Below, in pieces: positions 19,823 through 57,819 of a stretch of 64,000 nt of DNA. A program made the translations under genes and the position numbers. This stretch comes from Minisyncoccota bacterium (GTDB lineage Bacteria > Patescibacteriota > Minisyncoccia > Phycocordibacterales > SW-6-46-9), in assembly GCA_040905385.1 (NCBI GenBank), contig JBBDRP010000002.1:226292-290291 (forward strand), written 5' to 3'. The notes below the pieces were generated by a model. It searched no databases. It was not told where the DNA came from and saw only the letters and a list, made by a program, of their open reading frames with translations. Numbering within the stretch: the stretch's first letter is position 1; each line of letters starts with the position of its first letter.

Positions 19823-20503
19823 ATGCTTTTACACATTATAAAACGAGGAGGACGCGGCCTGCCGATTGTTGCGGATGACGATGATCGCTGGCGATATCTG
19901 AAATGTCTGTATTATCTAAATGATAAAAATCATCCGATAGGTTGGGAGCGTGATGTTGAAGCGCTTGGTTCTGGACTGCACTTTCAACGCCCGGAATCGT
20001 GGGGTGGTGAGCGCGATCCGTACGTCGATATCCTGTCGTACTGTCTGATGGATAATCATTACCATCTATTCGTTTCCGAGCGCGATGAGGGCATGATGGC
20101 GGCTTTTACGAGGTCGCTAAATAAAAGCATGTCGCAGGCCTATAATGAAAAGCAAGACACAAGCGGAAGTATCTTTCAAGGCCCGCCCAAGAAAAAGTTT
20201 GTTGAGGATGACGCCTACCTGAAATTCCTGTACGTCTATGTCAACGTCAAGAATCCCTTCGAGCGGTATCAGGGCGGCATTCGGAAGGCGATCGAGAATT
20301 TTGATGACGCCTGGGAGTTTGCGCTCGAATACGATTTCTCTAGCTTACCAGATTGTGCGGGTGACCGGGCGTCACCCATCGTGTCGCTGGATATATTTCG
20401 GGATGCATTTTCAAGCTCCGCCGAGTTCAAAGAGTTCGCCCGCGAGCAGATGCATCGGTACGGGCAGTTTCTGGAAGATGTCGATGCGGATGACTTAGAG
20501 TAG
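19823..20503 (+). CDS. tnpA: IS200/IS605-family / REP-associated (RAYT-like) HUH tyrosine transposase (Y1_Tnp)
   Basis: HuH motif MDNHYHLFV (nt ~20055-20080) and catalytic-Tyr region LYVYVNVKNPFE (compare E. coli RayT YIYINPVKHG). At 226 aa it is slightly longer than typical TnpA. Flanked by directly oriented REP-like hairpins. Confidence 0.7.
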   Translation: MLLHIIKRGGRGLPIVADDDDRWRYLKCLYYLNDKNHPIGWERDVEALGSGLHFQRPESWGGERDPYVDILSYCLMDNHYHLFVSERDEGMMAAFTRSLNKSMSQAYNEKQDTSGSIFQGPPKKKFVEDDAYLKFLYVYVNVKNPFERYQGGIRKAIENFDDAWEFALEYDFSSLPDCAGDRASPIVSLDIFRDAFSSSAEFKEFAREQMHRYGQFLEDVDADDLE

Positions 20504-23700: not shown

Positions 23701-26700
23701 ATCTTAACCGCGGATATATGGAATCAGGTTGTAGCGGTTGTAAATGGTACTAGCGCAATTTTGTATCATAACGGTCAGGAGATAACTTCAGGAACAATCG
23801 ATGCATATACAGGTAATGGCAATAATATTGCTTTTGGTGATAAACCACTAAGTTCAGGGTCTAGCATGAATGCTCTTAATGGGTCTCTGGATGAAGTTTA
23901 TATTTACAATAGTTTATTGTCTACTGACTGGATTGCCGCCGAGTACACTAACCAGTCTACCACTACTGACTTCTACACCGTCGGTAGCCTGGAAGAGCCG
24001 AGCACCGTCTTTGGCGACGATACCGATGGTGACTTTGCTGACACCGACTGGACGTATCGCGAGAAGATCACCATCAACGCCGACCAGGTGGAGGAGACGC
24101 TGACCGACTTCCCGGTCTATGTTGATCTGTCTGATTTCGGATCACAGTTTTTCAACAATGTCCGCAGTGATGGTGGTGATATTCGCATCACCGCCAGCGA
24201 CGGCACGACCGAGCTGGCGAGGGAAGTCGTCTCTGTGGACACTGCCTCATCGACCGGGGAAATCCATTTCAAGGCCGACGAGATCGACGCCGAGGCCGAT
24301 ACCGACTTTTACATTTACTATGGCAATACCGCCGCGGTCGACTACGTCGTTACGGATACGTACGGCCGTAACGCGGTGTGGAGTAACGGCTATGCTGGAG
24401 TTTGGCACACAGGCGAAGACTCTGCTACACAAACGTTTGATTCTACTGGTAACAATAATACGGGAAACTTTCAGGATAACTTACCAACCACGCAGTCTGG
24501 AAAGATTGGAGATACGCAAGATTTTGATGGCACTAGTGATTATATTGATGCGGGTACTGACTCTAGCCTAGACATCACAACTGAAATCACGGTCGGTGTC
24601 TGGGTGAATCCTGATAATACTGGTGGTGACTATACAGGAATAGTAAATAAAAGCAGAGCAGATACGGCTGGTTTCTGGATGGGGTATTCAGCGAACGGTG
24701 ATATAGTTAGATGGGAGACTAATGATGCAGGAGGAAGTTGGCATGAAGTTGATATGCCTTTAATAGATGCCGAAGTAGGAGAATGGAATCACTTCGTAGG
24801 TGTTTATGATGGTAGTGAGCTTATAGGTTATAAAAATGGTTCTCAATCAGGAACTCCTGATAGTTTTACTGGAGAATTTGAAACTACAACTAATTCCCTA
24901 AAGTTTGGAGATTTTGAGGTTGCGGATAGATGGTTTGATGGCATGCTTGATGAGATTCGTATCTCCAGTGCTGCGCGCTCTGCCGACTGGATCGCCACCG
25001 AATACAACAACCAAAATGCTCCTAGTAGCTTCTACACCATCTCTGGCAGCCCTTCCGAAGCGCCGGTGCTGCTGACTCCGGAAGATACGGCCACCGAGGT
25101 GAGCCGGGCGCCGACGCTGGACTGGCAACCGGTCCAATCAGCTACCGAGTACCAGGTGCAGGTGTCGCCAACCTCGACCTTCTCATCTATCACGGTGGAT
25201 GCGAACGCAACCGACAGCGAGATAGCTCTGGGCACGCCGTATCCGTCATTGGATGCCAGCACAACCTATCACTGGCGCGTACGCACGGTGGATGGGCAGA
25301 GCTTCGGCGCCTGGTCCACCGACTTTTCCTTTACGACAGCTGCTGGTCTGGCCGGCAGCGGTACCGAGGCCGATCCGTACCTCATCAGTACTCCACAAGA
25401 CCTGGATGACATTCGCAATGACCTGGATGCCTACTACCGACTTACGCAGGATATTGATCTGACCTTTGATACACGGGATCCAAATGGAGATTTTTATAAT
25501 GCTGGTGATGGTTGGCAGGAAATAGATAACTTTGATGGTGAATTCGATATGGGTGGATATAGTATTATCGGAGCCCGAATTTTTAATGGATTTTTTGATA
25601 ACATTGGATCAAATGGGCTTATACATTCAGGAAAATTTGCCGATTGCGAAGTTCATGGAGGATATGATCAAGGAGTTATTAACGAAACAGGAGGGGCAGG
25701 ATTAATTAAAGAAGTTGTAGTAGATAATTGTTCTGTGGCGTCGGGCAATACTACAAGCCGTAGAATTGGTGGATTTAGCGGTAGAGGAATCTCTTCTCAG
25801 GATGTTATTTCACGTAATCTTGTGCTCGGTGGAGAAGGTGATAAGGGTGCAAACACTGGACGAGTTTTTGATACCAAGGTGTACACACGAAACCTCATTC
25901 ACAATGTGAGTTGGGAGGGTGTAAGTGGTCAAACTGAAAATCCTCTTTTTGGGTGGATTCAATCTGGTGGAAATCCGACGGTAAATGATGTGTTTTTTGA
26001 TGATGATACGCTTGATTATGCCGGAACTCGAACTGACCAAGGTACCGGGCTAACTACCACCGAGGCGCAGGATATTACTACGTATGAAAATGCTGGGTGG
26101 GACATCGTTCCGATTGCTCAGCACGACGGGCAGCGGTCAACAGCAATTTGGTACATCGATGATGGCAATGATTATCCACGTCTGTGGTTCGAGTACGAGG
26201 GTGAGGGCTGGAAAGATGGCTGGAGCCACCGTGAGAAGGTCACGATCAAGTCATCGGCGGTGGATGCGACGCTGGAAGACTTTCCGGTCTATGTCGACCT
26301 AGCTGATTTCGGCGCCACGTTCTTTAATAACGTCCGTACTGATGGTGGCGATATTCGTGTCACCAAGGCGGACGGTACTACCGAGCTGGCCCGGGAGGTT
26401 GTCTCGGTAGATACCGCCTCCTCGACCGGTGAGTTACACTTCAAGGCCGACCGCCTCGCCAGCACCACCGACACAACCTTCTACGTTTATTATGGTAATC
26501 CAGATGCGTCCGAGTACGCGACTGATTATGCGTATGGTCGCAATGTTGTCTGGAGCGATTATGAAAACGTCTACCACCTCGACGAGCAAGGAGACGGTAC
26601 CACCGGAGAGCATATCGACTCAGCCGGTAACCACGACCTGACGGCTGGATACTTTTCTGCTGGTATTCCGAATCGAGTTGATGGAAACCTCGGGTACGCG

Positions 26701-29700
26701 CAGCAGTTTAACGGAACTGATACATCAATTGGTGGTGTATTTAATCTGAGTGCTAAGGATGAAATGGTCGTGTCGGTATGGGCGCAACCAACGGCCAGCG
26801 GGCAGTCCAGCCGGTCGGGAATATTTGGATACAGTGAATATAACGTTAGTTCAGCCTATCGATTGGGTGGATTTAGATTTACAAGCAGTGATTTAGGTGG
26901 GCTTGATATCTATCTAGATGATGGAAGTGCCGAGTGGTTTAACTCCACACTGACACTGAATCTCAACCAATGGAATTACATGGTGGGTAGATTTGAATCA
27001 GGGGTTACAAAAGATATTCTTATCAATGACCAGTGGGATGAACGTACTGCACCGACAGGCAGTTTGGCAGCGGGGACCTCAAGCATAGCACTTGGTGAAG
27101 TGCAGGAAGATCCTGTGAACCGCCGATTTCAGGGGCTCATTTCCGAGGCTCGCTACAGCACCGTAAAGAGGAGCCAGGAATTTTATGCCGCTGAGTATAC
27201 GAACCAATCGACCACCACCGATTTCTATACGGTCGATACGACACCAATCCAGATTGACAGCATCGAGGATTTGGATGATGTACGCAACGACCTATCAGCC
27301 AGTTATGAGTTGACGCGCAACCTGGATTTCGACGACTGCGCCTCTTATGACACCTGTGCCAATATGGACACCTACACAACCGGCAGTGGGTGGGACCCAA
27401 TTGGCACGAGTGGCGACCCTTTTACAGGTCAATTTGATTTCAAAGGACACTCAATTACCGGATTAATGATAAATAGATCTAGCACCGACTATCAAGGACT
27501 TTTCGGGGCCTTGGGACTTGATGGTTATATTCATAGCGGTTCAATTATTAATGCAGATGTTATCGGTGAGAAACGTACTGCAGTACTTGTTGGTTTCATG
27601 GATGGAAATGCACTTGTCGAACATATTTCTATTAGGAATAGTACTGTTGGAGGGTCGTACAGTGGTAACAAGGGACTGTTAGTTGGATGGTTAAATAGCA
27701 CTACTTCTCTGATAAGAGATTCTTATGCTCAAGGGCAAGCAATTGTAGGTAATTATAGTGCTGCAGCTGGAGAAATACATCCTGTTGATGCTCAGTTTCC
27801 TTCTGAAAATCTTTACTTTGTCGGAACTCTTGATTATGGTGCCAGTAGCCCTGTTGGAGGTATTGATGCGGCAGATAATGCTTTAAATAGTTTTTATGAT
27901 CAGGATGTTGCAGGAGAAATTTTTGGAGCAGATCCAGGAAATGCAACAACAACGGTCATAATGCAGGACATTGATACGTATATTAATGCTGGCTGGGACA
28001 TCGTCCCGATCGAAGAGCATGACGGGCAGGAGTCGACGGCGACCTGGTTTATTGATGATGGTAATGACTATCCGAAGCTGTGGTTTGAACGCGAGGGGGC
28101 CCAAAGCACAGCGTTTGGCGACGACCCCGACGGCGACTTTGCCGACACCGACTGGAGCCACCGCGAGAAGATCACCATCAACCCCGACAAGGTGCCGACG
28201 GTTACAAGTAGCGTTAATTCGCGCGTCACGCAATCCAGTGATGATGCTGAGGAAAAGCTTTCCGATAATAGTATGCTTATCTCAAGTTCTGATCTTGAAC
28301 TTATCGCTGATGGCACGTCGCCTGGCGGCGATCAAGAGATCGGACTGCGTTTCCAGAACATTACTATTCCCCAGGGTGCCGTGATCACCAACGCCTACAT
28401 CGAGTTCCAGACCGACGAGACCAACAGCACTACCACCAACCTAACCTTCCGCGCGGAGGATAATAACGATACGACGACCTTTACTACCGGTAGTGGTGAC
28501 ATTACCAACCGATCCAAGACAGCCGCCTCGGTTGATTGGAACAACGTGCCGGCCTGGAATACGATTAGCGAAAAGCATCAGACCCCGGATCTGTCGGCGG
28601 TGGTGCAGGAGGTGGTTGATCGCGCCGGCTGGCAGAGTGGTAACGCGATGGCGATGTTTGTCACTGGTGACGGAACCCGGATTGCCGAGGCATATGATGG
28701 CGAGGCGGCCAATGCACCGCTGCTGCATATCGAGTACGAATCTCCAGCGGCAACCTTGACGGATTTTCCAGTTTATGTTGATCTGGCCGATCTGTCGGAT
28801 ACGTTTTTCGTCTACGTAGCAAATGACGGGGCGGACATCCGCGTGACGGCCGGTGACGGGCTGACCGAGCTTCCGCGGGAAGTCGTGTCTGTGGATAGCG
28901 TCGGGAAGACGGGTGAGCTGCACTTCAAGGCCGATGCAGTATACGGGTCGGTCGGGACTGAGTTCTACATCTACTACGGTAATCCGTTTGCTGTGAATTA
29001 TTCAGCCACGGATACGTATGGTGCTCAGAATGTGTGGAATAGTAATTATGTGTTGGTTAGCCATGATGGAGGTGCCACAGATTCAACAAGCAATGGAAAT
29101 AATGGAACTGCTAATGGTGATGCTACTGCAGGGATAGCTACTGGTAAAGTTGGTACTGCTGCAGAATTTGATGGAGTTAGTGATTCATTCCAGATAGCAG
29201 ACGACGCTTCGCTTGATACACCCTCCGCAATCACTATTACAGCTTGGGTAAATGCGAACTCATTCAAGTCTGACTTCAGCGAAATTGTTAGTAAGAAGTT
29301 TGATACTGGTTATGATTTCTTGGTCGACAATGATGCTGGCACAAACGATTTGGAATTCATAAGTTTTGATGCAGATATTCTTCAGTATTCCAACGATAAC
29401 GTGGTTGCCACTAGTACTTGGTCTCATGTGGCTGTTACATATGATAAATCAAATGTAAATTTTTATGCGGATGGCTCGTATGAAGGAGGCGGTGCAGAGA
29501 CGGCAGATATTGGTACGAATAATGAGGATCTGTATATCGGTAGCGATGCAGGTAATAGCTGGGAGTGGAATGGACTTATTGATGAAGTCAGGATACTCTC
29601 TAGTTCTCAATCTGCTGACTGGATTACAGTCGAGTATAATAACCAGTCGTCTCCATCCACCTTCTACTCTGTAGGTACGCAGGAGATTAGCGGCGAAGAC

Positions 29701-30423
29701 ACGATACCGCCGTATCCAGATCCGAGCGAGTTTGCCGTGGCACCAGATGGGGCCAGCACGTCGTCGATCACGATGACGGCTGCCACCTCTACGGACGGCG
29801 AGGGATCAACCCCGGTCGAGTACTACTTCAACTACCAGGCGTGTGCTGCCGATGCCGGCACCGGCTGGAGTCACTCTGGTTGGTTGGTGGAGACGTCGTA
29901 TACCGACGAGAATCTCCAGGTTAACCAGTGCTACAGCTACCGCGTAAAGACCCGGGATAGCCTGGGTAACGAGACGGCGTACTCGGCAACATCCAGTGCC
30001 TACACCGCCGCCGCAATTCCGGACGCGCCGTCACTTTCCAACCCGACGGAGACGACGCTGGACTTGGTGAACAATGAAGGTGCCAACCCAACCGCTAATC
30101 CCGACACCACCTTTGCGGTACAAGTCAGCGATACCTCACCAGGAGACCAGACCTGGACAAACCAGTACGTCAACGCCAGTGGTGAGCCGTCAGCCACCGC
30201 CGTCTGGCTGACAGACAGCCAGCTGAGCGGCTTGACGGTTACCATGCTGGAGCCGAACATCACCTACACCTTCCGCACCAAGGCTCGCAATGAAGACGGT
30301 GACGAGACCGGCTGGTCGGCGACAACCGTGGCCTCGACCTCGTCTGACTACCCAGATGAGACGGACACCTCAACCCGTCTGCGCGGCGGCTCGACCATCC
30401 GCGGTGGCAGCACAGCGCAGTAA
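20728..30423 (+). CDS. Giant (3231 aa) surface protein, paralogous to gene 2. Has an N-terminal TM anchor, at least seven DUF2341-like modules interleaved with LamG_3 domains, two FN3 domains and a distinct insert domain (nt ~28225-28745). C-terminus ends in ...LRGGSTIRGGSTAQ.
   Basis: Same module signatures as 13177-19737. Long near-identical stretches shared with gene 2 (e.g. AAGLAGSGTEADPYL.STPQDLDD.RNDL; TTAEAQDI.TY.NAGWDIVPI..HDG..STA.WYIDDGNDYP.LWFE). Terminal FN3: YYFNYQACAADAGTGWSHSGWL...YSYRVKTRDSLGNET. Confidence 0.85.
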   Translation: MMILEFYKKVKEFIGRHPRMVAVVGVTVAVLVILGSVGTQAAWYSSTGDGPTWQYRQKITIDADQVDAELTDFPVYVDLSDFGSDFFSNVAADGGDIRITTADGTTELAREVVSVDTASSTGELHFKADSLSASSDSEFFIYYGSSGASDYAVTDTYGRNAVWSDYRFVSHDAGYTDSSGALAQGTLFNGITPNDSAGIIGKATLFDKPSQQYVQLGDTIIPPSSDFTFDVWAEQFDFTGTTVSDESLILTQNDSGSTNATFVHGSNARQNHITGLWDINNSRTLEGPDIRGNGWVKLQIRRDGNEFNLFHNNVLQDATTTAITIPDAANAYLGAYENNGPERFFTGLISEVRSAYTARSDDWIATEYTNQNNTTDFYTIGAQDTQPDSNVAFGANSYGDFADTRWSHREKITIDAAQVDADLADFPVYVDLADLSTTFFQNTNVTCGDIRVTAGDGLTELAREVVACDTASSTGELHFKADSLSASSDTEFYIYYGNNSANNYIHDEQFGRDNVWSDGYAGVWHLSEGSGEARDSTANSSNGTNNGATQGVVGQVGGGYDFDGTDDYVKITENFVSSPSELTISAWFKKESGGDVYETVLHKGSADTVGSSDYWLGVSGDDNLTATIGANTGVGWDAGETTTSVNLGQWYHMAATWDGSVVEVYLDGQFNKQYSLSSYGDLNTDTRFGSSADGTNYQFRGTASEIRIYNKSISGDEISATYRNQNSPTTFYTVGVNEASAGLFGDNPSGDFADADWGYREKITIDADQVGATLTDFPVYVDLSNLSATFFDNVTASGGDIRVTAGDGTTQLAREVVSVNTASSTGELHFKADSISSTTDTSFYIYYGNPNADDYAVGDTYGAENVWSNETLAAFHLEENAVNSSDDNFNGTINGSPAWVTGVIYSALDFLGTNGNNVEISSALQSDITNNSYTVKAWINPRLTGSSNQAIIDTGSEGDGQMRFFMNDTDGSFKIQNTASFTGTGVRSSAGILTADIWNQVVAVVNGTSAILYHNGQEITSGTIDAYTGNGNNIAFGDKPLSSGSSMNALNGSLDEVYIYNSLLSTDWIAAEYTNQSTTTDFYTVGSLEEPSTVFGDDTDGDFADTDWTYREKITINADQVEETLTDFPVYVDLSDFGSQFFNNVRSDGGDIRITASDGTTELAREVVSVDTASSTGEIHFKADEIDAEADTDFYIYYGNTAAVDYVVTDTYGRNAVWSNGYAGVWHTGEDSATQTFDSTGNNNTGNFQDNLPTTQSGKIGDTQDFDGTSDYIDAGTDSSLDITTEITVGVWVNPDNTGGDYTGIVNKSRADTAGFWMGYSANGDIVRWETNDAGGSWHEVDMPLIDAEVGEWNHFVGVYDGSELIGYKNGSQSGTPDSFTGEFETTTNSLKFGDFEVADRWFDGMLDEIRISSAARSADWIATEYNNQNAPSSFYTISGSPSEAPVLLTPEDTATEVSRAPTLDWQPVQSATEYQVQVSPTSTFSSITVDANATDSEIALGTPYPSLDASTTYHWRVRTVDGQSFGAWSTDFSFTTAAGLAGSGTEADPYLISTPQDLDDIRNDLDAYYRLTQDIDLTFDTRDPNGDFYNAGDGWQEIDNFDGEFDMGGYSIIGARIFNGFFDNIGSNGLIHSGKFADCEVHGGYDQGVINETGGAGLIKEVVVDNCSVASGNTTSRRIGGFSGRGISSQDVISRNLVLGGEGDKGANTGRVFDTKVYTRNLIHNVSWEGVSGQTENPLFGWIQSGGNPTVNDVFFDDDTLDYAGTRTDQGTGLTTTEAQDITTYENAGWDIVPIAQHDGQRSTAIWYIDDGNDYPRLWFEYEGEGWKDGWSHREKVTIKSSAVDATLEDFPVYVDLADFGATFFNNVRTDGGDIRVTKADGTTELAREVVSVDTASSTGELHFKADRLASTTDTTFYVYYGNPDASEYATDYAYGRNVVWSDYENVYHLDEQGDGTTGEHIDSAGNHDLTAGYFSAGIPNRVDGNLGYAQQFNGTDTSIGGVFNLSAKDEMVVSVWAQPTASGQSSRSGIFGYSEYNVSSAYRLGGFRFTSSDLGGLDIYLDDGSAEWFNSTLTLNLNQWNYMVGRFESGVTKDILINDQWDERTAPTGSLAAGTSSIALGEVQEDPVNRRFQGLISEARYSTVKRSQEFYAAEYTNQSTTTDFYTVDTTPIQIDSIEDLDDVRNDLSASYELTRNLDFDDCASYDTCANMDTYTTGSGWDPIGTSGDPFTGQFDFKGHSITGLMINRSSTDYQGLFGALGLDGYIHSGSIINADVIGEKRTAVLVGFMDGNALVEHISIRNSTVGGSYSGNKGLLVGWLNSTTSLIRDSYAQGQAIVGNYSAAAGEIHPVDAQFPSENLYFVGTLDYGASSPVGGIDAADNALNSFYDQDVAGEIFGADPGNATTTVIMQDIDTYINAGWDIVPIEEHDGQESTATWFIDDGNDYPKLWFEREGAQSTAFGDDPDGDFADTDWSHREKITINPDKVPTVTSSVNSRVTQSSDDAEEKLSDNSMLISSSDLELIADGTSPGGDQEIGLRFQNITIPQGAVITNAYIEFQTDETNSTTTNLTFRAEDNNDTTTFTTGSGDITNRSKTAASVDWNNVPAWNTISEKHQTPDLSAVVQEVVDRAGWQSGNAMAMFVTGDGTRIAEAYDGEAANAPLLHIEYESPAATLTDFPVYVDLADLSDTFFVYVANDGADIRVTAGDGLTELPREVVSVDSVGKTGELHFKADAVYGSVGTEFYIYYGNPFAVNYSATDTYGAQNVWNSNYVLVSHDGGATDSTSNGNNGTANGDATAGIATGKVGTAAEFDGVSDSFQIADDASLDTPSAITITAWVNANSFKSDFSEIVSKKFDTGYDFLVDNDAGTNDLEFISFDADILQYSNDNVVATSTWSHVAVTYDKSNVNFYADGSYEGGGAETADIGTNNEDLYIGSDAGNSWEWNGLIDEVRILSSSQSADWITVEYNNQSSPSTFYSVGTQEISGEDTIPPYPDPSEFAVAPDGASTSSITMTAATSTDGEGSTPVEYYFNYQACAADAGTGWSHSGWLVETSYTDENLQVNQCYSYRVKTRDSLGNETAYSATSSAYTAAAIPDAPSLSNPTETTLDLVNNEGANPTANPDTTFAVQVSDTSPGDQTWTNQYVNASGEPSATAVWLTDSQLSGLTVTMLEPNITYTFRTKARNEDGDETGWSATTVASTSSDYPDETDTSTRLRGGSTIRGGSTAQ

Positions 30424-48737: not shown

Positions 48738-48823
48738 TCCAGTTTCCTAACTGTAGTTGATTAAACATCAACTCTACGTACGTGATTTAACTATTTATGC
48801 ATATACACGGACGGATAATTTCA

Positions 48824-48853
48824 GCAAGCCTCATTCTTGGGCTTGCTTTGTTC
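48824..48853 (+). terminator. Rho-independent terminator
   Basis: CAGCAAGCC-TCATTCTTG-GGCTTGCTTTGTT. Confidence 0.6.
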
Positions 48854-48986
48854 GTGGGCTATCTGGCAGCTGCCGAGGTTGCTGCTGAGAGGACGTCGAT
48901 TTCCTGCTTCATACCTAATACCTCTTTTTTCTAATTCTCTATAATGGACTTTTTGCCTTACAGTCTTTATACTTTAGACTAATACC

Positions 48987-49886
48987 ATGGCAACACTATA
49001 TGGTGACCAATCGGCGAATAGAAAGAAAACCTGGGCCCTGATGGCCGGTTTCTTGATCGTGATTATTCTGCTTGGTTGGGCGGCTAGCTGGTACTTTAAC
49101 TCGCAGATTATTCTCTTTGTGGCGGTGGGGTTTTCACTGGTCATGAACGGCATCAGCTTCTGGTTTTCACACAAGATTGCGCTCAAGAGTGCCGGTGCGG
49201 AGGAGGCTGACCCGAAGCAGTATCAGGAGCTGCACAATCTTGTCGAGAACCTCTGCATCACCGCTGGTATTCAGAAGCCAGGTGTATACATCATCGAGGA
49301 TCCGTCTCCAAATGCCTTTGCTACCGGGCGTAATGAAGAGACAGCCGCCGTGGCGGTTACAACGGGGCTGCTACAGCTACTGGATCGGTCCGAGCTAGAG
49401 GGAGTGATTGCCCACGAGATTGCCCACATCACCAATCGAGATATCCTGCTGTCCTCGATGGTCGTGGTATTGGTTGGGTTTGTGACGCTGCTTTCTGACT
49501 TTTTTCTGCGCTGGTCGCTTTTCGGTGGCGGTGGTAGTGACAATCGGGCAGGACTTCTCTTCGCTATTGTTGGAATCGCACTGGCAATTCTGTCGCCGAT
49601 TATTGCTATGATTATTCAGCTGGCCATCTCTCGCAAGCGTGAGTTTCTCGCCGATGCTAGTGGGGCACTTTTGACTCGGTATCCGGAGGGGTTAGCAAAT
49701 GCACTACGAAAGATTGATTCATCGGTAAGCGATCGACCACTCAGCCGGGCTAACCACGCGACGGCACATCTGTACTTTGAGAATCCGTACGGGGGAGACG
49801 ACTCAAAAAAAGGATTTCTAACCAAGGCGTTTATGACCCACCCACCGACCAGTGAGCGGATTAATGCTCTGATGAGTCAACAGTAG
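48987..49886 (+). CDS. htpX: Zn-metalloprotease HtpX (peptidase M48)
   Basis: HEIAHI (HExxH) motif, 4 TM helices, typical HtpX length. Confidence 0.9.
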   Translation: MATLYGDQSANRKKTWALMAGFLIVIILLGWAASWYFNSQIILFVAVGFSLVMNGISFWFSHKIALKSAGAEEADPKQYQELHNLVENLCITAGIQKPGVYIIEDPSPNAFATGRNEETAAVAVTTGLLQLLDRSELEGVIAHEIAHITNRDILLSSMVVVLVGFVTLLSDFFLRWSLFGGGGSDNRAGLLFAIVGIALAILSPIIAMIIQLAISRKREFLADASGALLTRYPEGLANALRKIDSSVSDRPLSRANHATAHLYFENPYGGDDSKKGFLTKAFMTHPPTSERINALMSQQ

Positions 49887-50210
49887 TGCCGAACATTTGC
49901 CAGAAGAGAAGTAGCGGCTGCCAGTTTTAGTACATGATTATGCAAAAGTTTATTATTCGAGCACGTAAAGGCCTTATTTTTAGCTACAATAAATAGCACA
50001 CAAAACTGTGGATAAGTCTACTTGACTCTGTATACCGTTTTGCTAATATATGTGTACGGGCAAAGACAGAGACATTAAAAATCAAAGTTGAGTCGGTACT
50101 TACGACAACCGCATCACTACGATGCATACACCATACACACCCACTCAACACACACATTTTTAACTCACTCTCAATCTTTCCCACACAACACATATTCATT
50201 TCATTTATAA

Positions 50211-50234
50211 TTCTGCATTTGCAGAATTTTTTTA
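50211..50234 (+). terminator. AT-rich hairpin + T8 (TTCTGCATTTGCAGAATTTTTTTA) ending a G-depleted CA-rich tract
   Basis: Read directly. The stem is weak (6 bp). Confidence 0.4.
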
Positions 50235-50349
50235 TTACATACAGCTATTGACCGCAAGAGCTAATTAGAATAATATGTGGCTGCTGAGACATAATCCCCT
50301 TTGTTTCAGCAGGTTACCAATACAGGTAATTCCATCCCACACTCCTACG

Positions 50350-50380
50350 GGCCCGAGCCAGCTAAGCTCGGGCCTTTTTT
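50350..50380 (+). terminator. Strong rho-independent terminator
   Basis: GGCCCGAGC-CAGCTAA-GCTCGGGCC-TTTTTT, with no ORF upstream. Confidence 0.75.
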
Positions 50381-50471
50381 ATTTAATAAAATGAAAACTT
50401 TAGGTATACTGACAGCATACGTAGCATTCATAGAGGGGTGACAGAGTGGATGAAAAAAATATTATTACAGC

Positions 50472-50557
50472 GGAGGGATGACAGAGCGGTCGATTGTGCA
50501 CGCTTGGAAAGCGTGTGTGCGTTCTTCGCACCGCGGGTTCGAATCCCGCTCCCTCCG
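50472..50557 (+). tRNA. tRNA-Ser (anticodon GGA), class II with long variable arm
   Basis: Acceptor GGAGGGA/TCCCTCC + G, 3-bp D-stem, anticodon loop TTGGAAA, variable hairpin GTGCG-TTCT-CGCAC, T-arm GCGGG-TTCGAAT-CCCGC. Confidence 0.9.
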
Positions 50558-50577
50558 CTGTGGTTGTATTTTTTCGC
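50541..50577 (+). repeat. Direct repeat copy 1: last 17 nt of tRNA-Ser + 20 nt trailer (GAATCCCGCTCCCTCCGCTGTGGTTGTATTTTTTCGC)
   Basis: Identical sequence (with one extra T) at 50691-50728. Confidence 0.85.
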
Positions 50578-50690
50578 GCTCTCTGCAGAATTTGAACGAG
50601 TTGGATTTTTAAGGAGAAAAGAAAGCGCATTTCTGCGCTTTCGTGAGGCGTGGTGACGGAAATTTTGAGTCAGCAAAATTATCTGTGACC

Positions 50691-50728
50691 GAATCCCGCT
50701 CCCTCCGCTGTGGTTGTATTTTTTTCGC
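50691..50728 (+). repeat. Direct repeat copy 2 of the tRNA-Ser 3' end + trailer (att-like scar)
   Basis: See 50541-50577. 113 bp separate the copies. Confidence 0.85.
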
Positions 50729-50799
50729 CCCCCTCAGTATTGAATAACCAACAAGTACTTCGTGTGTTTGTTGGTGGTTAAATAGGTATAATTATAAAT

Positions 50800-51123
50800 A
50801 TGACAAATACAAAGTTAGTAAAATTTAAGTTTAAATTGGGTACTAAACAAATTTGGCTAGATTGGTCAAAGGAGTTAAAGCGAAGGGAAGATGAAGTAAT
50901 TGAGACACTTAAAAATGAAGGTGTTGTTTCTGAATCTTGTTATATGTCAGATGATGGCGAGCATGTTTATTATTTTATGGAAGCAGAAGATTTTGAGAAA
51001 GTAAAAAGGGCTGTTAGTGAAAATCCTCATCCTATTGACAGTGATCATAAAAAGGCCAGAGAAAGTAGTCTAGATTTTGTTTCAAAATTAGAATGTCTTT
51101 TTCATTTTAGTAACAGAAATTAA
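50800..51123 (+). CDS. Hypothetical protein (107 aa), markedly more AT-rich than neighbours; extended -10 TGGTTAAATAGGTATAAT 8 bp upstream
   Basis: ORF only. Compositional contrast visible by eye. Confidence 0.5.
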   Translation: MTNTKLVKFKFKLGTKQIWLDWSKELKRREDEVIETLKNEGVVSESCYMSDDGEHVYYFMEAEDFEKVKRAVSENPHPIDSDHKKARESSLDFVSKLECLFHFSNRN

Positions 51124-51190
51124 CGTTATTAGAACCTTAAAACGTTATACTAAAAAGTATTAAAAACATAGTGGTATACTGGAGTCAGTT

Positions 51191-51715
51191 ATGAAGCGCC
51201 ACCACATTATCCTTACAACGGTTTTCCTAACCCTGGCTGTCATTTTTGTGGCTGGATGGTATCTACTGCCGATTGAGTTGTTTCCGGATCGCGATACAAC
51301 CAACAACAGCGATATAACCCAGTACGCTGTTTGGGAGCACGAAGATCGTTGTTTCTATTTAGATGTGGCAGATACCTCTACGCTCCGGCGTCAAGGTCTC
51401 TCTGGACGCGAGTCTCTCGGATCCAACGAGGGCATGCTTTTTCTGTATCGTTTGTCGGGTGAGTACGGCTTCTGGATGCGGGACATGAACTTTCCAATTG
51501 ACATCATCTGGTTGGATCGAAACGACGAGATTGTCACTATTGTATCGTCCGCATTACCGGATTCGTATCCGGAAATTTATTATCCTGACAATTCTGCCAG
51601 AAAGATCATCGAAGTCTCGGCCGGTGTAGCTGAGAAGCTCGATTTGAATATTGGCGATCGGCTAGATGTGTCCCCGGCAACCTCGACTCCGTCGGTTGAT
51701 TGCGCGATGCTTTGA
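51191..51715 (+). CDS. DUF192 (COG1430) domain protein with N-terminal TM anchor
   Basis: ...YLDVADTSTLRRQGLSGRESLGSNEGMLFLY...FWMRDMNFPIDIIWLDRNDEIVTI.... Confidence 0.75.
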   Translation: MKRHHIILTTVFLTLAVIFVAGWYLLPIELFPDRDTTNNSDITQYAVWEHEDRCFYLDVADTSTLRRQGLSGRESLGSNEGMLFLYRLSGEYGFWMRDMNFPIDIIWLDRNDEIVTIVSSALPDSYPEIYYPDNSARKIIEVSAGVAEKLDLNIGDRLDVSPATSTPSVDCAML

Positions 51716-51862: not shown

Positions 51863-53197
51863 ATGTCAAAAACTACATCCCAAGATTCTGATACAGCAGG
51901 ATTTTCAGTCACGGAGGCTGAAAAAATTGTCGGTAATGTCCTAAAACGCGACGGTAGCAAGGTTGCGTTTGATATTGATAAAATTGTCGCTGCTATTATG
52001 GGCGCTATGAGCGAAGCTGAAGAGGGAACCGAAGACGATGCCCGACAAGTAGCTGAAAATGTCCTGATGGAGCTGGCTCGTATAAAGGATCGCTACGCGA
52101 CGTTTCTGCCGTCGGTAGAAGGGATTCAGGACCATGTCGAGAAGGAGCTCATTAAGGCCAACTATGCCGCTACGGCCAAGGCCTATATTTTGTATCGGCA
52201 TCGACAGGCTGAGCTACGTGAGCGTAACCTGTTTCGTCCACGTCAGAATCTCAAGCCGTACGAGTATCCCGAGCTGGCCGAGTACGTCGATGCTATCCGG
52301 CACTCCTACTGGATTCATACCGAGTTTAACTACACCTCGGATATCAATGACTACAAAGCCAACATTACGGATGTGGAGCAGAGCGCCATCAAGAACTCCA
52401 TGCTGGCGATTGCGCAGATCGAGGTGGCGGTAAAGACTTTCTGGGGTGATTTGTATAAGAAGATGCCGAAGCCAGAGATCGGGGCAGTCGGTTATACGTT
52501 TGCTGAAAGTGAGGTTCGTCACATGCAGGCGTACTCACATCTGCTGGAAATTCTTGGCCTGAATGGTGAGTTTAAACACCTTACCGAGGTGCCAGTAATC
52601 AAGGAAAGAATTGATTACCTGAATCGGGCGGCAGCACCATCGCATAATGACAACGATCGCGAGTATACGCGCTCCATATTTCTGTTCTCCTTGTTTGTAG
52701 AGCATGTATCACTGTTCAGTCAGTTCCTGATCATTATGGCCTTTCAGAAGCACAAGAACCTCTTTAAGGGCATCTCTAACGTCGTCGAGGCTACCTCAAA
52801 GGAAGAGCAGATTCACGGTCTGTTTGGAATTGACCTCGTAAATCAGATTAAAAAAGAAGAGCCACGTTGGTTTGATGACGAGTACGAGCAATCGGTGCGC
52901 AACATGTGCCGGGAGGCGATGGCGACCGAGGAAAAGCTGGTCGACTGGATCTTCGAGGCTGGCGAGCTTGATTTTCTTCCTAAGCAGGTGGTGCATGAGT
53001 TCCTCAAGCACCGTATGAACAACTCCTTGAAATCAATTGGCTATGCGCCAGAGTTTGATACTGATAAAGATCTTGTGGCCGAAACAGCCTGGTTTAACGA
53101 AGAGGTGATTGCCACCAAGCATGTCGACTTCTTCCAGAAGCGCTCCATCAATTACTCCAAAAAGACGCAGAGTGTCACCTCTGATGACCTCTTCTAA
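51863..53197 (+). CDS. nrdB: Ribonucleotide reductase small subunit (NrdB, ferritin-like di-metal R2) with an N-terminal ATP-cone
   Basis: N-term VLKRDGSKVAFDIDKIVAAI (ATP-cone). R2 core ...EVRHMQAYSHLLE..., ...SLFSQFLIIMAFQ... Precedent: ATP-cone-containing NrdB proteins are described in the literature. Confidence 0.8.
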   Translation: MSKTTSQDSDTAGFSVTEAEKIVGNVLKRDGSKVAFDIDKIVAAIMGAMSEAEEGTEDDARQVAENVLMELARIKDRYATFLPSVEGIQDHVEKELIKANYAATAKAYILYRHRQAELRERNLFRPRQNLKPYEYPELAEYVDAIRHSYWIHTEFNYTSDINDYKANITDVEQSAIKNSMLAIAQIEVAVKTFWGDLYKKMPKPEIGAVGYTFAESEVRHMQAYSHLLEILGLNGEFKHLTEVPVIKERIDYLNRAAAPSHNDNDREYTRSIFLFSLFVEHVSLFSQFLIIMAFQKHKNLFKGISNVVEATSKEEQIHGLFGIDLVNQIKKEEPRWFDDEYEQSVRNMCREAMATEEKLVDWIFEAGELDFLPKQVVHEFLKHRMNNSLKSIGYAPEFDTDKDLVAETAWFNEEVIATKHVDFFQKRSINYSKKTQSVTSDDLF

Positions 53198-53244: not shown

Positions 53245-54921
53245 ATGTCATACGAATGGTTAAACGAACAGTCACAAACATTTCTCGAGCGTGGGTACCT
53301 GGTTGGCGACCAGACGCCGAAGGGGAGAATTCGCGAGATTGCTGAAACCGCCGAAGAATACCTCCAGAAGGACGGCTTCGCCGATAAGTTCGAGGACTAC
53401 ATGTCCAAGGGCTACATCTCATTGGCTAGTCCAGTTTGGAGTAACTTTGGGCTGGATCGGGGGTTACCAATCAGCTGCTTTGGATCTGACATTGCCGATA
53501 ATATGAGCAGTATTTTATATACACAGGCGGAGGTTGGCATTATGAGTAAGTACGGTGGGGGAACCTCAGCTCACTTTGGTAATCTGCGCGAGCGTGGTGC
53601 CTCGATTTCTAACAATGGTCAGTCCAACGGTCCGGTCCACTTTATGCAGCTTTTTGACAAGATGGTTGATGTAGTTAGCCAGGGAAATGTGCGCCGCGGA
53701 AATATGGCGACGTATCTTCCGGTTGAACATCCAGACATCATGGAGTTTCTAGATATTGGTACTGAAGGAAACGAGATTCAGGGGCTGACTCACGCCGTAA
53801 CAGTTGGGGATGATTGGATGCAGGAAATGGTGGACGGCGATGACGAGAAGCGCGCCATCTGGGCCAAGGTTATCCAGCGTCGTGGAGAGATCGGCTATCC
53901 GTACATTATGTTTTCTGATAATGCCAACAACAACCGACCACAGGTTTACAAGGATAAGGACATGCGTATCAAGGCCACGAACCTGTGTTCGGAAATCATG
54001 CTGCCATCAGACGAGGATCTTTCCTTTGTCTGCTGCCTGTCTTCAGTGAATCTCCTCCACTACAACGAATGGAAGGACACCGACCTGATTGAGACCGTGA
54101 CGTACTTTCTGGATGCCGTTATGGAGGACTTCATCGTCTCGCTGGAACGGCTGCGTGACTCTGACGAAGAGGAGGATCAGCAGTCATTTGAGTTCATGAA
54201 ACGAGCGCATAAGTTTGCCAAGGAGCACCGTGCTGTTGGGGTCGGTGTGTTGGGTTGGCACTCATTCCTGCAGTCCCGTAGCATTCCGATGGAAAGCCAG
54301 GAGGCTGATCAGCTGAACGTAGAAATATTTAAAAATCTTAAAGAAAAAACGTATGCTGCCTCCGAGGAAATGGCGCAGGTGTACGGTGAGCCGGAGGTCC
54401 TGAAAGGCTACGGTCGGCGTAATACGACGACGATGGCGATTGCACCAACTACCTCATCATCCTTTATTTTGGGGCAGGTTTCGCAAAGCATCGAGCCGCT
54501 GATGAGTAACTGTTACGTAAAGGATCTGGCCAAGATAAAGACCACCATTCGCAATCCATACCTGAAAGAAATTCTCAAGGAGAAGGGGAAGGATACGGTG
54601 GAAACCTGGGACAGCATTCGCGACAATGATGGGTCCGTCCAGCACCTGGATTATCTTTCCGAGCATGAGAAGGAGGTGTTTCGCACCTACGCAGAGATGG
54701 ATCAGGCCAAGATTATTGAGCAGGCAGCGGTACGTCAGCAGTACATTGACCAGGGACAGTCTCTGAACGTACTGGTTGGTCCGGAGGCTTCGGCTAAGGA
54801 TATCAATGAGCTGTATCTGAAGGCGTGGCGAAACGGGGTCAAGGCACTGTACTATCAGCACAGCATGAACGCTGCCCAGCAGCTGAGTCGGAAGAAGATT
54901 TGTGCGGCTTGTGAAGCGTAA
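53245..54921 (+). CDS. nrdA: Class I ribonucleotide reductase large subunit (NrdA/NrdE-like), short form without ATP-cone
   Basis: Catalytic NLCSEIMLP motif and C-terminal redox pair KICAACEA. 558 aa. Confidence 0.75.
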   Translation: MSYEWLNEQSQTFLERGYLVGDQTPKGRIREIAETAEEYLQKDGFADKFEDYMSKGYISLASPVWSNFGLDRGLPISCFGSDIADNMSSILYTQAEVGIMSKYGGGTSAHFGNLRERGASISNNGQSNGPVHFMQLFDKMVDVVSQGNVRRGNMATYLPVEHPDIMEFLDIGTEGNEIQGLTHAVTVGDDWMQEMVDGDDEKRAIWAKVIQRRGEIGYPYIMFSDNANNNRPQVYKDKDMRIKATNLCSEIMLPSDEDLSFVCCLSSVNLLHYNEWKDTDLIETVTYFLDAVMEDFIVSLERLRDSDEEEDQQSFEFMKRAHKFAKEHRAVGVGVLGWHSFLQSRSIPMESQEADQLNVEIFKNLKEKTYAASEEMAQVYGEPEVLKGYGRRNTTTMAIAPTTSSSFILGQVSQSIEPLMSNCYVKDLAKIKTTIRNPYLKEILKEKGKDTVETWDSIRDNDGSVQHLDYLSEHEKEVFRTYAEMDQAKIIEQAAVRQQYIDQGQSLNVLVGPEASAKDINELYLKAWRNGVKALYYQHSMNAAQQLSRKKICAACEA

Positions 54922-55491: not shown

Positions 55492-57819
55492 ATGTCTCAA
55501 TCAGCATCTCAATTAGGGGAGGGTAAAAGAAATGTATCAGTGGATGAAGCTGAAAAAATTATTGGTAAAGTCATGAAGCGTGATGGTGCTATTGTTGATT
55601 TTAATATTGATAATATTGCGAACGCTATTTTCTCTGCAATGAAAGAGACGGAAGAGGGATCTAAATCAGCAGCAGAAAAAGTTGCCAAGCGTGTTTTAAC
55701 AGAGCTCGTTCGTATCAAGGAGCGATACGCTACCTTCGTCCCTTCTGTTGAAGGAATTCAGGACCATGTAGAGAAGGCACTTATGCGAGCTGACTTTCCG
55801 CAGACGGCCAAGGCTTATATTTTATATCGAGAGAAGCGATCGCAAGAGAGAGAGCAAAAAACCTATGTAGTTCCCGAGGAGGTTAAGCAGGCGGTGGCTG
55901 AGTCAAGTCAGTATTTCGGCAGTTCTTATCAGGAGTTTATTTTTTACCGCACCTACTCTCGTTGGCGAGATGATCTCGGTCGGCGGGAAACTTGGACGGA
56001 GGCCATCGATCGGTATATGGATTTCATGCGTGAGAATGTTGGCAACAAAATAACTGAATCTGAGTATAAGGAAGTTCGTCAGGCTATGCTGGATATGGAA
56101 ATTATGCCTTCGATGCGACTACTTTGGTCGTCCGGTAAGGCGGCTCGGGAGTCAAATGTTTGGGCGTACAACTGTTCTTATTTAGCACCAACTCGGTTGC
56201 GAGATTTTCCCGAAATGATGTATATCCTTATGTGTGGAGCTGGTTTAGGCTACTCGGTTGAGACTGAGAATATTGGGCAGTTACCGCAGATAATTAAGCA
56301 AACAGGAGAGCAGCTAGAGACACATGTGGTGGCTGATAATAAAGAGGGTTGGGCTGATGCTTTTCTTCATGGTCTTGAGACGTGGTATGCCGGTAAGGAT
56401 ATTGAGTTTGATTACTCGAAGGTGCGTCCGAAAGGGGCTCGCTTGAAGACGGCTGGTGGTACAGCCAGCGGTCCGCAGCCGCTGAAGAACTTAATGGCTT
56501 TTTCTCGTGAGAAAATTCTTGCTCGACAAGGTAAGCGACTATCAACCATTGATGTGCATGACATAATTTGTAAAATCGGAGAGATTGTAGTATCTGGTGG
56601 AGTGCGACGATCGGCCTTGATTTCGTTGTCAGATCTTGGTGACGAGGATATGCGTGATGCTAAAAAAGGGCGCTTCTTTGACACGGAACCGCAGCGAGCC
56701 ATGGCCAACAACTCAGCAGTTTATGAAGAAAAACCATCACCAGGAACCTTTCTGTCTGAGTGGACAGCGTTGGTGAAAAGTAATTCTGGAGAACGCGGTA
56801 TCTTTAATCGCGGTGGCCTGGAGGAGCAGCTACCCGAGCGCCGTGCAAAAATATTTCGCGAGAAAGAGGAGAATGGAGATATGAGTTTCCGGCCAGGAGT
56901 TAATCCGTGTGGTGAAATTATTCTGCAGAGCCGACAGTTTTGCAATCTTACCAATGTGGTAATACGGAAAGGGGATACCGTGAAAGAGCTGAAGCGGCGT
57001 ATGCGGCTGGCGAGTCTGCTTGGTACGTACCAAGCAACCTTGACAAAGTTCAAGTATCTGTCTGAGGAATGGAAGCAGAACTGTGACCAAGAGCGCTTAC
57101 TTGGCGTTGCCTTTACTGGCTATTATGACAACGAGGCGGTACGCGATGATAAGGTGATGGAGGAGCTTAAAAACGAAGCCGTAGCCGCCAATGATAAGTA
57201 TGCGGAACGTCTTGGTATTAGTAAATCAACCTGTGTGACTACGGTGAAGCCAAGTGGAAACTCATCCCAGCTAACTGACACAGCTTCGGGAATGCATCCA
57301 CGCTACGCTCCGTACTACATTAGACGCGTACGAATCAGCGATACTGATCCTTTGTTTAAATTAATGAAGGAAGAAGGGGTGTCGTACCAGCCTGAGGTTG
57401 GTCAGACTGAGGATACAGCCAATACGTTTGTGCTAGAGTTTCCGCTGAAAGCACCGGAAGGAGCCATCACAACTAAGGATGTTAGTGCCTTAGATCTACT
57501 TAAGGAGTGGCGCCGCGTCAAGGAGCATTACACAGAACATAATCCTTCAATCACGATTTCGGTTGGTGATGATGAGTGGATTGAAGTGGCTAACTTTCTG
57601 TATAAAAATTGGGAGACGGTTGGTGGACTGTCATTTCTGCCACGAACTGACCACGTTTACGACTTAGCTCCGTATGAGCCAATCTCGAAGGAGGAGTACG
57701 AAGAGATGGTTTCCCAGGTGCCGGATGTTGACTTTGCTAAGCTGTCCGCTATCGAGGCGACAGATAATACCGAGGGATCAAAGGAGTTTGCCTGCGTGTC
57801 TGGAGAGTGTCCAATTTAG
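55492..57819 (+). CDS. Ribonucleotide reductase, class II (adenosylcobalamin-dependent, NrdJ-like) with N-terminal ATP-cone
   Basis: N-term VMKRDGAIVDFNIDNIANAIFSA (ATP-cone). NPCGEIILQSRQFCNLTNV active-site motif typical of class II. 775 aa. Confidence 0.65.
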   Translation: MSQSASQLGEGKRNVSVDEAEKIIGKVMKRDGAIVDFNIDNIANAIFSAMKETEEGSKSAAEKVAKRVLTELVRIKERYATFVPSVEGIQDHVEKALMRADFPQTAKAYILYREKRSQEREQKTYVVPEEVKQAVAESSQYFGSSYQEFIFYRTYSRWRDDLGRRETWTEAIDRYMDFMRENVGNKITESEYKEVRQAMLDMEIMPSMRLLWSSGKAARESNVWAYNCSYLAPTRLRDFPEMMYILMCGAGLGYSVETENIGQLPQIIKQTGEQLETHVVADNKEGWADAFLHGLETWYAGKDIEFDYSKVRPKGARLKTAGGTASGPQPLKNLMAFSREKILARQGKRLSTIDVHDIICKIGEIVVSGGVRRSALISLSDLGDEDMRDAKKGRFFDTEPQRAMANNSAVYEEKPSPGTFLSEWTALVKSNSGERGIFNRGGLEEQLPERRAKIFREKEENGDMSFRPGVNPCGEIILQSRQFCNLTNVVIRKGDTVKELKRRMRLASLLGTYQATLTKFKYLSEEWKQNCDQERLLGVAFTGYYDNEAVRDDKVMEELKNEAVAANDKYAERLGISKSTCVTTVKPSGNSSQLTDTASGMHPRYAPYYIRRVRISDTDPLFKLMKEEGVSYQPEVGQTEDTANTFVLEFPLKAPEGAITTKDVSALDLLKEWRRVKEHYTEHNPSITISVGDDEWIEVANFLYKNWETVGGLSFLPRTDHVYDLAPYEPISKEEYEEMVSQVPDVDFAKLSAIEATDNTEGSKEFACVSGECPI

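Follow-up and report, generated by a model that had tools for sequence, protein, structure and literature searches.

Why should the 3′ end of an intact tRNA gene occur a second time, a short distance downstream of the gene itself? The question is raised by a 64,000-nt stretch of DNA from a Minisyncoccota bacterium (hereafter the window, whose positions serve as coordinates throughout), which represents 64 kb of a 784-kb metagenome-assembled genome (MAG) and in which the gene for tRNA-Ser(GGA) is followed by a displaced copy of its own 3′ end and then by a small gene of the DUF6176 family. The explanation put forward here, which has about an even chance of being correct, is that mobile DNA integrated at a tRNA hot spot and left a scar that is now almost empty, and that the DUF6176 gene was gained separately. 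Scars of this type are well known, and the present one would be real but ordinary; in this phylum, they have been little described, and integrated mobile elements with their attachment sites are little documented in the Patescibacteria or candidate phyla radiation (CPR), with genomes below 1 Mb.

The core of the evidence is an exact 35-nt direct repeat, CGAATCCCGCTCCCTCCGCTGTGGTTGTATTTTTT, found at 50540-50574 and again at 50690-50724, with a start-to-start spacing of 150 nt. Beyond the 35-mer, a T6/T7 indel is followed by CGC in both copies, bringing the repeat to 38 and 39 nt, respectively (Table 1). As read from the sequence, the T-arm of the tRNA consists of GCGGG (50533-50537), the loop TTCGAAT (50538-50544) and CCCGC (50545-50549), followed by the 3′ strand of the acceptor stem and the discriminator base up to 50557. 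Of the tRNA, the repeat takes in the final 18 nt, beginning with C56 in the T-loop and ending with the discriminator base; approximately 20 nt of the trailer follow. The left edge of the repeat, at 50540, is the third base of the T-loop. The tRNA part of the second copy (50690-50708) lies on the + strand, like the gene, and begins 133 nt past the tRNA 3′ end. The edges of the repeat are sharp, the flanks on the left and on the right aligning no better than shuffled sequence, and no chance match to it occurred in 100 dinucleotide-preserving shuffles with up to three mismatches allowed. No third copy is present in the 64-kb window. An initial sequence-only reading of this DNA had already noticed the repeat, with coordinates one base off, and had given the gap between the copies as 113 bp where it measures 112 nt; the hairpin that it saw in the gap is real and has a loop of four nucleotides. 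Its interpretation of the two copies as the attL/attR signature of a tRNA-targeting integrative element is supported by their orientation, by the side of the gene on which the fragment lies and by the left boundary in the T-loop, all of which are as for a tRNA-targeting integrase.

The repeat is unlikely to be a product of the assembly. Of two independent short-read (Logan) contigs from SRR27977661, L002 ends at 50569 and L001 starts at 50695, where the second copy has its first unique k-mer. At k=31, a true 35-nt repeat would interrupt contigs at exactly these two k-mers, so the repeat must have been present in the reads rather than made by an assembler.

Nine related tRNA-Ser loci are available for comparison: L025, found through its HtpX homologue; L028 to L034, obtained from metagenome contigs by a search with the tRNA body; and the pair L057+L064, retrieved through HtpX and DUF192 homologues. 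Their flanking genes are 72-80% identical to those of the window in DNA and their tRNA 95-98%; no genome above approximately 88% HtpX identity was found in the protein collection. The eight related loci in which the tRNA 3′ flank is visible all lack the 3′ repeat, which is thus not a duplication ancestral to all relatives, the alternative to a scar that the sequence-only reading had named; the DUF6176 gene is absent from this locus in every relative. What the flank contains differs in each of them and is low in GC. It is reduced to 54 nt without cargo in L025, and it carries a PQ-loop-like open reading frame (ORF) in L031, a membrane ORF in L032, an unknown ORF in L030 and, in L029, two genes, the nearer of which encodes an HNH homing endonuclease at 65 nt from the tRNA 3′ end and the next a large serine recombinase. 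The end of the L029 contig overlaps that of L022, from the same JGI sample (3300023049), by 153 nt at 99.3% identity, giving the order HtpX, ORF364, metK, ORF108, recombinase A, recombinase B, HNH, tRNA-Ser, DUF192. This reveals an island of approximately 6.6 kb and 31-38% GC between htpX and the tRNA 3′ end (L022 3645-7844 and L029 5415-2901), with two convergent large serine recombinases that are 56% identical and an HNH endonuclease with HNH_repeat domains. Several metagenome contigs stop at or near the tRNA 3′ end, as expected of a strain-variable site. Judged by these alignments, the tRNA-Ser(GGA) 3′ flank is a hot spot, holding different DNA in each lineage. The sequence-only reading had proposed a comparison with related genomes for inserted elements; they offer variable low-GC cargo and a recombinase island, the repeat itself recurring in none.

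The pair L057+L064 probably represents the same locus as an ‘empty site’ in the orientation of the window. L057 contains HtpX, the same conserved non-coding region, the promoter block (TTTAGGTATACT...) and then the first 15 nt of the tRNA, while L064 starts in the T-arm and has 68 nt from the tRNA 3′ end to the DUF192 start codon; both come from SRR31660265, share an acceptor-stem variant and are taken to be linked through the tRNA. This site is approximately 20-28% diverged from the window and lacks the whole of some 560 nt, not just the 150-nt interval. Compared with it, the window has approximately 560 extra nucleotides on the 3′ side of the tRNA, made up of the 112-nt spacer with its terminator, the displaced 3′ fragment and the DUF6176 gene, and 40 extra nucleotides on the 5′ side. 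Homology to the relatives resumes at 51171, 20 nt before the DUF192 start. The tRNA is parallel to htpX and DUF192 in the window and in L057+L064; it is antiparallel to both genes in L025, L028, L031, L032 and L022+L029, with its 3′ end facing htpX, and likewise diverges from DUF192 in L029, L030, L033 and L034. These opposite orientations imply that the block of promoter and tRNA was inverted at least once in the group. This small inversion did not give rise to the repeat, because L057+L064 have the orientation of the window without the repeat. A whole-block inversion shared with L031 and L028 was also considered and rejected, the 13-nt match at 51146-51158 being too weak (E 0.39).

Two further tRNA fragments bear on the mechanism. 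The first, which the sequence-only reading did not list, is a decayed 22-nt copy of the tRNA 5′ end just upstream of the gene (Table 1). A 14-nt stretch within it, GAGGGGTGACAGAG, matches the tRNA 5′ end of the relatives exactly, and its overall identity is 18/22 to the tRNA of the relatives and 17/22 to that of the window. The fragment sits exactly where the tRNA of L057 begins, and is in this sense positionally orthologous to it; it keeps the ancestral G7, in contrast to the A7:T66 pair of the intact gene; T66 is present in both 3′ copies. The four to five changes in 22 nt, as against none in the 38 nt of the 3′ copy, point to two events of different age, and at the divergence of the 5′ fragment (approximately 18%), 38 unchanged bases would have a chance of approximately 5e-4 by our own calculation, which assumes neutrality. 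The second is a 66-nt 5′ pseudo-copy of tRNA-Ser in L031 (5520-5585, - strand), 98.5% identical to the intact gene at 5248-5334, which lies 177 nt upstream of that gene in the sense of the tRNA and ends at the border of T-stem and T-loop. Breakpoints in the T-loop are thus found in two independent fragments, the 3′ copy of the window and the 5′ copy of L031, and it is this coincidence that favours site-specific recombination. A possible degenerate 3′ fragment is also present in L031 at 5201-5218 (approximately 15/18 by eye), a similarity that is not significant by BLAST.

The DUF6176 gene next to the second copy is, by sequence comparison, most probably a lineage-specific acquisition, because it is absent from the locus in all relatives, its closest homologues lie in unrelated neighbourhoods and a probable empty site in the same orientation exists. 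Its product scores 63.7 bits against a PF19673 gathering cut-off of 27, residues 3-104 of 107 being covered, and has 75 homologues at E ≤1e-3, mostly in Patescibacteria. The 19 genome loci and 5 further contigs with the closest homologues (76-81% identity) have none of the neighbour genes of the window, and the contexts of the gene in them are varied. A conserved mobile cassette around the gene was rejected, since nucleotide homology to the 19 other loci ends at the coding sequence. The protein is predicted to form a dimeric ferredoxin-like alpha+beta barrel (pLDDT, the confidence score of the model, 94.5) with best PDB matches to the ABM monooxygenase and sugar mutarotase types, and on the basis of this model it has no apparent mobile-element function. 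The sequence-only reading had taken this AT-rich ORF to be foreign: its acquisition is upheld and its GC content is indeed 30.6% against 47.9% for the window, but DUF6176 genes fall below the GC of their host locus in 18 of 19 loci, so the low GC is partly a trait of the family, and the ORF lies outside the interval between the repeats. The strong -10 box, also read as a foreign sign, does not serve as one, since its spacing is the layout of the conserved gene DUF192, which has TATACT at 51176-51181 before an ATG at 51191, kept in L025, L030 and L064. Elsewhere in the family, no tRNA-derived repeats surround the DUF6176 gene in L006, L007, L008 or L019, and a serine recombinase gene is found 4 kb from it in L003. 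The L008 locus deserves a separate mention: the C-terminal remnant of a large serine recombinase (6331-6450, - strand) lies directly after the DUF6176 homologue on the other strand, and direct repeats of approximately 85 nt at 4769-4853 and 6577-6684 (84-95% identical, with a 23-nt indel), which begin at the last bases of a tRNA-Gln and are unrelated to those of the window, flank 1.8 kb containing a 259-aa ORF and this homologue.

Table 1. Features of the tRNA-Ser(GGA) locus and its surroundings, in window positions
Feature	Position	Strand	Basis or remarks
Promoter -10 box of tRNA-Ser, TATACT	50405-50410	+	Promoter scan, TTAATA-16-TATACT
Decayed tRNA-Ser 5′ fragment, tRNA positions 1-22 (AGAGGGGTGACAGAGTGGATGA)	50432-50453	+	Sequence comparison
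tRNA-Ser(GGA), intact, CCA not encoded	50472-50557/8	+	ARAGORN; Rfam RF00005, 55 bits vs gathering score 29
Direct repeat copy 1, attL-like: T-loop C56 to tRNA 3′ end and 20 nt of trailer	50540-50577	+	Sequence comparison
Spacer between repeat copies, presumed remnant of inserted DNA	50578-50689	.	112 nt
Hairpin, intrinsic-terminator-like, for a leftward transcript	50621-50642	-	9-bp stem GAAAGCGCA/TGCGCTTTC, 4-nt loop, tail TTTTCTCCTT
Direct repeat copy 2, attR-like displaced tRNA 3′ fragment and trailer	50690-50728	+	Sequence comparison; start of Logan contig L001
-10 box of DUF6176 gene, TATAAT	50787-50792	+	7 nt before ATG, read from sequence; predicted near-leaderless mRNA
DUF6176 gene, 107 aa	50800-51123	+	Pfam PF19673, E 1.8e-17
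Resumption of homology to relatives (DUF192 promoter and start region)	51171-51190	+	51171 aligns to L029, L030, L033, L034; GTGGTATACTG to L064
Ribonucleotide reductase genes (small and large class I pair, class II)	51863-53197, 53245-54921, 55492-57819

The configuration can be set against known systems of integration beside tRNA genes. In Islander, islands in tRNA genes (tDNAs) are recognized by an intact tRNA gene accompanied by a cognate fragment in the same orientation, a 3′ fragment lying downstream of the gene; the crossover subsites are the anticodon loop, the T loop and the junction of T and acceptor; an integrase is demanded inside an interval of 2-200 kb; and only tyrosine integrases are known to target tDNAs (PMC4383910). 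With such tyrosine-integrase islands the window shares an intact and functional tRNA, a downstream 3′ fragment in the same orientation that starts in the T-loop, and a flank that is low in GC and variable between relatives. The elements with large serine recombinases, exemplified by L022+L029, occupy the same hot spot in a related genome, between htpX and the tRNA 3′ end, and homologous recombinases or their remnants also occur near DUF6176 genes in L003 and L008; they differ from the window in that the element of the relative has no tRNA fragment, while the window has no such recombinase gene, nor a remnant of one in the spacer, by tblastn. Crossover by serine integrases takes place at a core of 2 bp, and they are not known to leave long direct repeats. 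Free-standing homing endonuclease genes also exist beside tRNA genes, such as SegB of phage T4, and spread by break repair with co-conversion of flanking DNA; the HNH endonuclease gene directly 3′ of the same tRNA in L029 is of this kind in its position, but none is present in the region of the window, and homing normally leaves no 38-nt direct repeat.

On the scar model, mobile DNA would have carried an attP site, the counterpart of the chromosomal target, copying the tRNA from the T-loop to the 3′ end plus approximately 20 nt of trailer, with a predicted junction ...AATTATCTGTGAC-CGAATCCCGCTCCCTCCGCTGTGGTTGTATTTTTT-CGCGCTCTCTGCAG..., or the same core with other arms. An integrase, most likely of the tyrosine type, would have recombined this site with the chromosomal tRNA-Ser(GGA) gene at the T-loop. 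Integration would have regenerated a working tRNA at attL and displaced the old 3′ end downstream as attR. A later deletion may then have taken nearly all the inserted DNA, leaving 112 nt that include the terminator of a lost leftward gene. The DUF6176 gene lies beyond the displaced fragment and was therefore probably gained in a separate, presumably earlier, event at the same hot spot, or may belong to an older element that has lost its far end. The decayed 5′ fragment would be the record of a still older rearrangement. In this scheme, the class of integrase, the loss of the insert and the chronology are our inference.

The spacer contains no credible ORF, those that overlap it being spurious frames across the tRNA, and nothing similar to it occurs elsewhere in the window or among related loci totalling 0.5 Mb; an 18-nt similarity to L031 seen in a small search was not significant in a larger one (E 0.18). 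A structured RNA in the spacer and second copy was rejected as well: the predicted fold is not exceptional against shuffled sequence (z -0.77), and Rfam has no match there. A tandem duplication fails to account for the locus, only 38 nt of the 150-nt unit being repeated and the flanks aligning no better than shuffled sequence, as does a transposon or miniature inverted-repeat transposable element, no inverted repeats having been found at the ends of the spacer. A duplication of 38 nt is also far longer than typical target-site duplications.

Several observations weigh against the scar model. The interval measures 112-150 nt and holds neither an integrase nor any other gene, unlike the islands of 2-200 kb in Islander, from which the locus also departs in its Patescibacteria/CPR host, in the position of its low-GC gene outside the interval and in the lack of an attP partner in IMG/VR. 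A degenerate third copy that might bound a larger island including DUF6176 was sought in the window and not found. No recombinase is encoded in the 112-nt interval or among the window ORFs of at least 180 aa scanned against Pfam, and tblastn with both recombinases of the relatives found nothing in the window, even at E ≤50 within 50400-51300; the integrase negative covers 64 kb of the 784-kb genome. The search for the repeat as attP, which the sequence-only reading had suggested, came back empty: of four patterns run against IMG/VR, the 24-nt core and the trailer junction had 0 matches, the other junction patterns gave chance matches only, and a relaxed 21-mer hit only unrelated high-GC taxa. 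The block of identity includes 20 nt of non-tRNA sequence, the recombinases seen at the hot spot in relatives are of the serine type only, which is not known to make such repeats, the borders of the L022+L029 island carry no tRNA fragment, and the D-loop, in which the 5′ fragment ends, is not among the known crossover sites.

Much of this would fit an origin without any att-specific integrase, in which illegitimate recombination or the repair of a double-strand break, possibly triggered by a homing endonuclease like that of L029, patched foreign DNA beside the tRNA and left the tRNA pieces on either side as traces of the repair. The presence of partial tRNA copies on both sides of the intact gene, the 5′ one with its end in the D-loop, speaks for such an event, as do the HNH gene 65 nt from the tRNA 3′ end in L029, the missing integrase in the window and attP in IMG/VR, the serine-only recombinases of the relatives and the trailer sequence within the repeat. 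We nevertheless consider this origin unlikely, though worth serious attention, since two breakpoints, that of the L031 fragment and that at the left of the repeat, fall within the 7-nt T-loop, which by our own estimate would happen at random with a probability of approximately (11/86)^2, the edges of the repeat are sharp and its configuration is canonical, and the window region holds no homing endonuclease gene. The sequence-only reading had preferred a remnant or a miniature element to an intact island, and the lack of a recombinase gene in or near the interval agrees with this. Its miniature form, in which the 150-bp unit of 38-nt repeat and 112-nt spacer is a non-autonomous integrative element, perhaps still mobilized by an integrase encoded elsewhere, gains from the two copies being intact and identical; it is improbable given that a second occurrence of the spacer is found neither in the window nor among 0.5 Mb of related loci, that the spacer has no terminal inverted repeats, that no integrase is seen in the 64 kb and that a 150-bp circle is a poor substrate for recombination.

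A very improbable variant is that the tRNA-Ser(GGA) 3′ flank serves in this Paceibacterota clade as a dedicated landing pad, at which single accessory genes co-oriented with the tRNA are swapped in and out by a trans-acting recombinase acting on an att site in the T-loop, so that ultra-small CPR genomes would capture genes in the manner of integrons. Were it true, the 38-nt repeat would be the residue of a recent exchange, and the opposite orientations of the tRNA would reflect the same recombinase acting on inverted sites. It is also most improbable that the second copy is functional and kept by selection, whether for termination, for processing or as a tRNA-like leader insulating or regulating DUF6176: it is perfectly conserved, ends in a run of seven T and lies 71 nt upstream of that gene, yet it is missing from every relative with a visible flank, its fold with the spacer does no better than shuffled sequence, and DUF6176 homologues elsewhere lack such an upstream element, homology being confined to the coding sequence. 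Finally, a chimeric assembly path through a strain-variable region is scarcely credible. The genome is a MAG, and in other samples, whose contigs are interrupted at the tRNA, the locus does vary between strains; against this, two independent Logan contigs from the run of the window have their end and start precisely at the limits of the 35-mer, and such borders need reads joining spacer and repeat on either side, so that at least one genome in the sample must have both copies.

If the scar model holds, the locus offers a comparatively anchored case of a tRNA recombination hot spot in Patescibacteria/CPR, in three states: probably empty, reduced to a scar with little of the insert left, and occupied by a 6.6-kb recombinase island. 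It also shows the entry of a small accessory gene, DUF6176, into the conserved htpX-tRNA-DUF192-ribonucleotide reductase neighbourhood and marks a break point of MAG assemblies in the clade, and the 38-mer can be used as a probe for the missing element. The most useful by-products are the comparative map of the hot spot, the recombinase island of the relative and a conserved candidate small RNA upstream.

The neighbourhood in the window runs from LemA and HtpX (48987-49886) through approximately 590 nt of non-coding DNA to the tRNA-Ser gene, the repeat, DUF6176 and DUF192 (51191-51715), beyond which lie a class I ribonucleotide reductase pair and then a class II reductase. The tRNA gene is 95-98% identical to its counterparts in the nine related loci, and its promoter block, TTTAGGTATACTnACAGCATA, is kept in L057 just 5′ of the tRNA start. 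In the precursor, the leader ACAGC and the trailer GCTGT would lengthen the acceptor stem to 12 perfect base pairs (50467-50478 with 50550-50561), an extension that is common to L031 and not found in L030.

The non-coding region between htpX and the tRNA contains a candidate small RNA of approximately 100 nt (50248-50385, + strand), with a promoter TTGACC-17-TAATAT at 50248-50276 and three predicted hairpins, the last an intrinsic terminator (50349-50375 plus a T run); its minimum free energy is -42.7 kcal/mol (z -6.9). Promoter, hairpins and terminator are kept in L057, L058, L026 and L027, with compensatory changes in 7 of 23 pairs, and the block 49893-50382 is 81-86% conserved compared with 75% for the htpX coding region. 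No Rfam family matches the candidate, the best being mmgR/suhB at 26.8 bits, under the cut-off of 41. On the other side of htpX, the relatives L022, L025, L026 and L027 have a DUF2207 gene between LemA and HtpX that is missing from the window (48738-48986); only approximately 60 nt of its 5′ end are left (48812-48872), which implies that this lineage has lost about 1.8-1.9 kb by deletion. Among the ribonucleotide reductases, the small subunit has an N-terminal ATP-cone, the adjacent 558-aa large subunit has none and the class II enzyme has an ATP-cone of its own. Further away, the window contains three giant + strand ORFs (2138-13117, 13177-19737 and 20728-30423, encoding 3659, 2186 and 3231 aa) and, between the last two, a 226-aa ORF (19823-20503) with a weak match to an IS200-like Y1 transposase that stays below the threshold (E 5e-4; 20.6 bits, the cut-off being 23).

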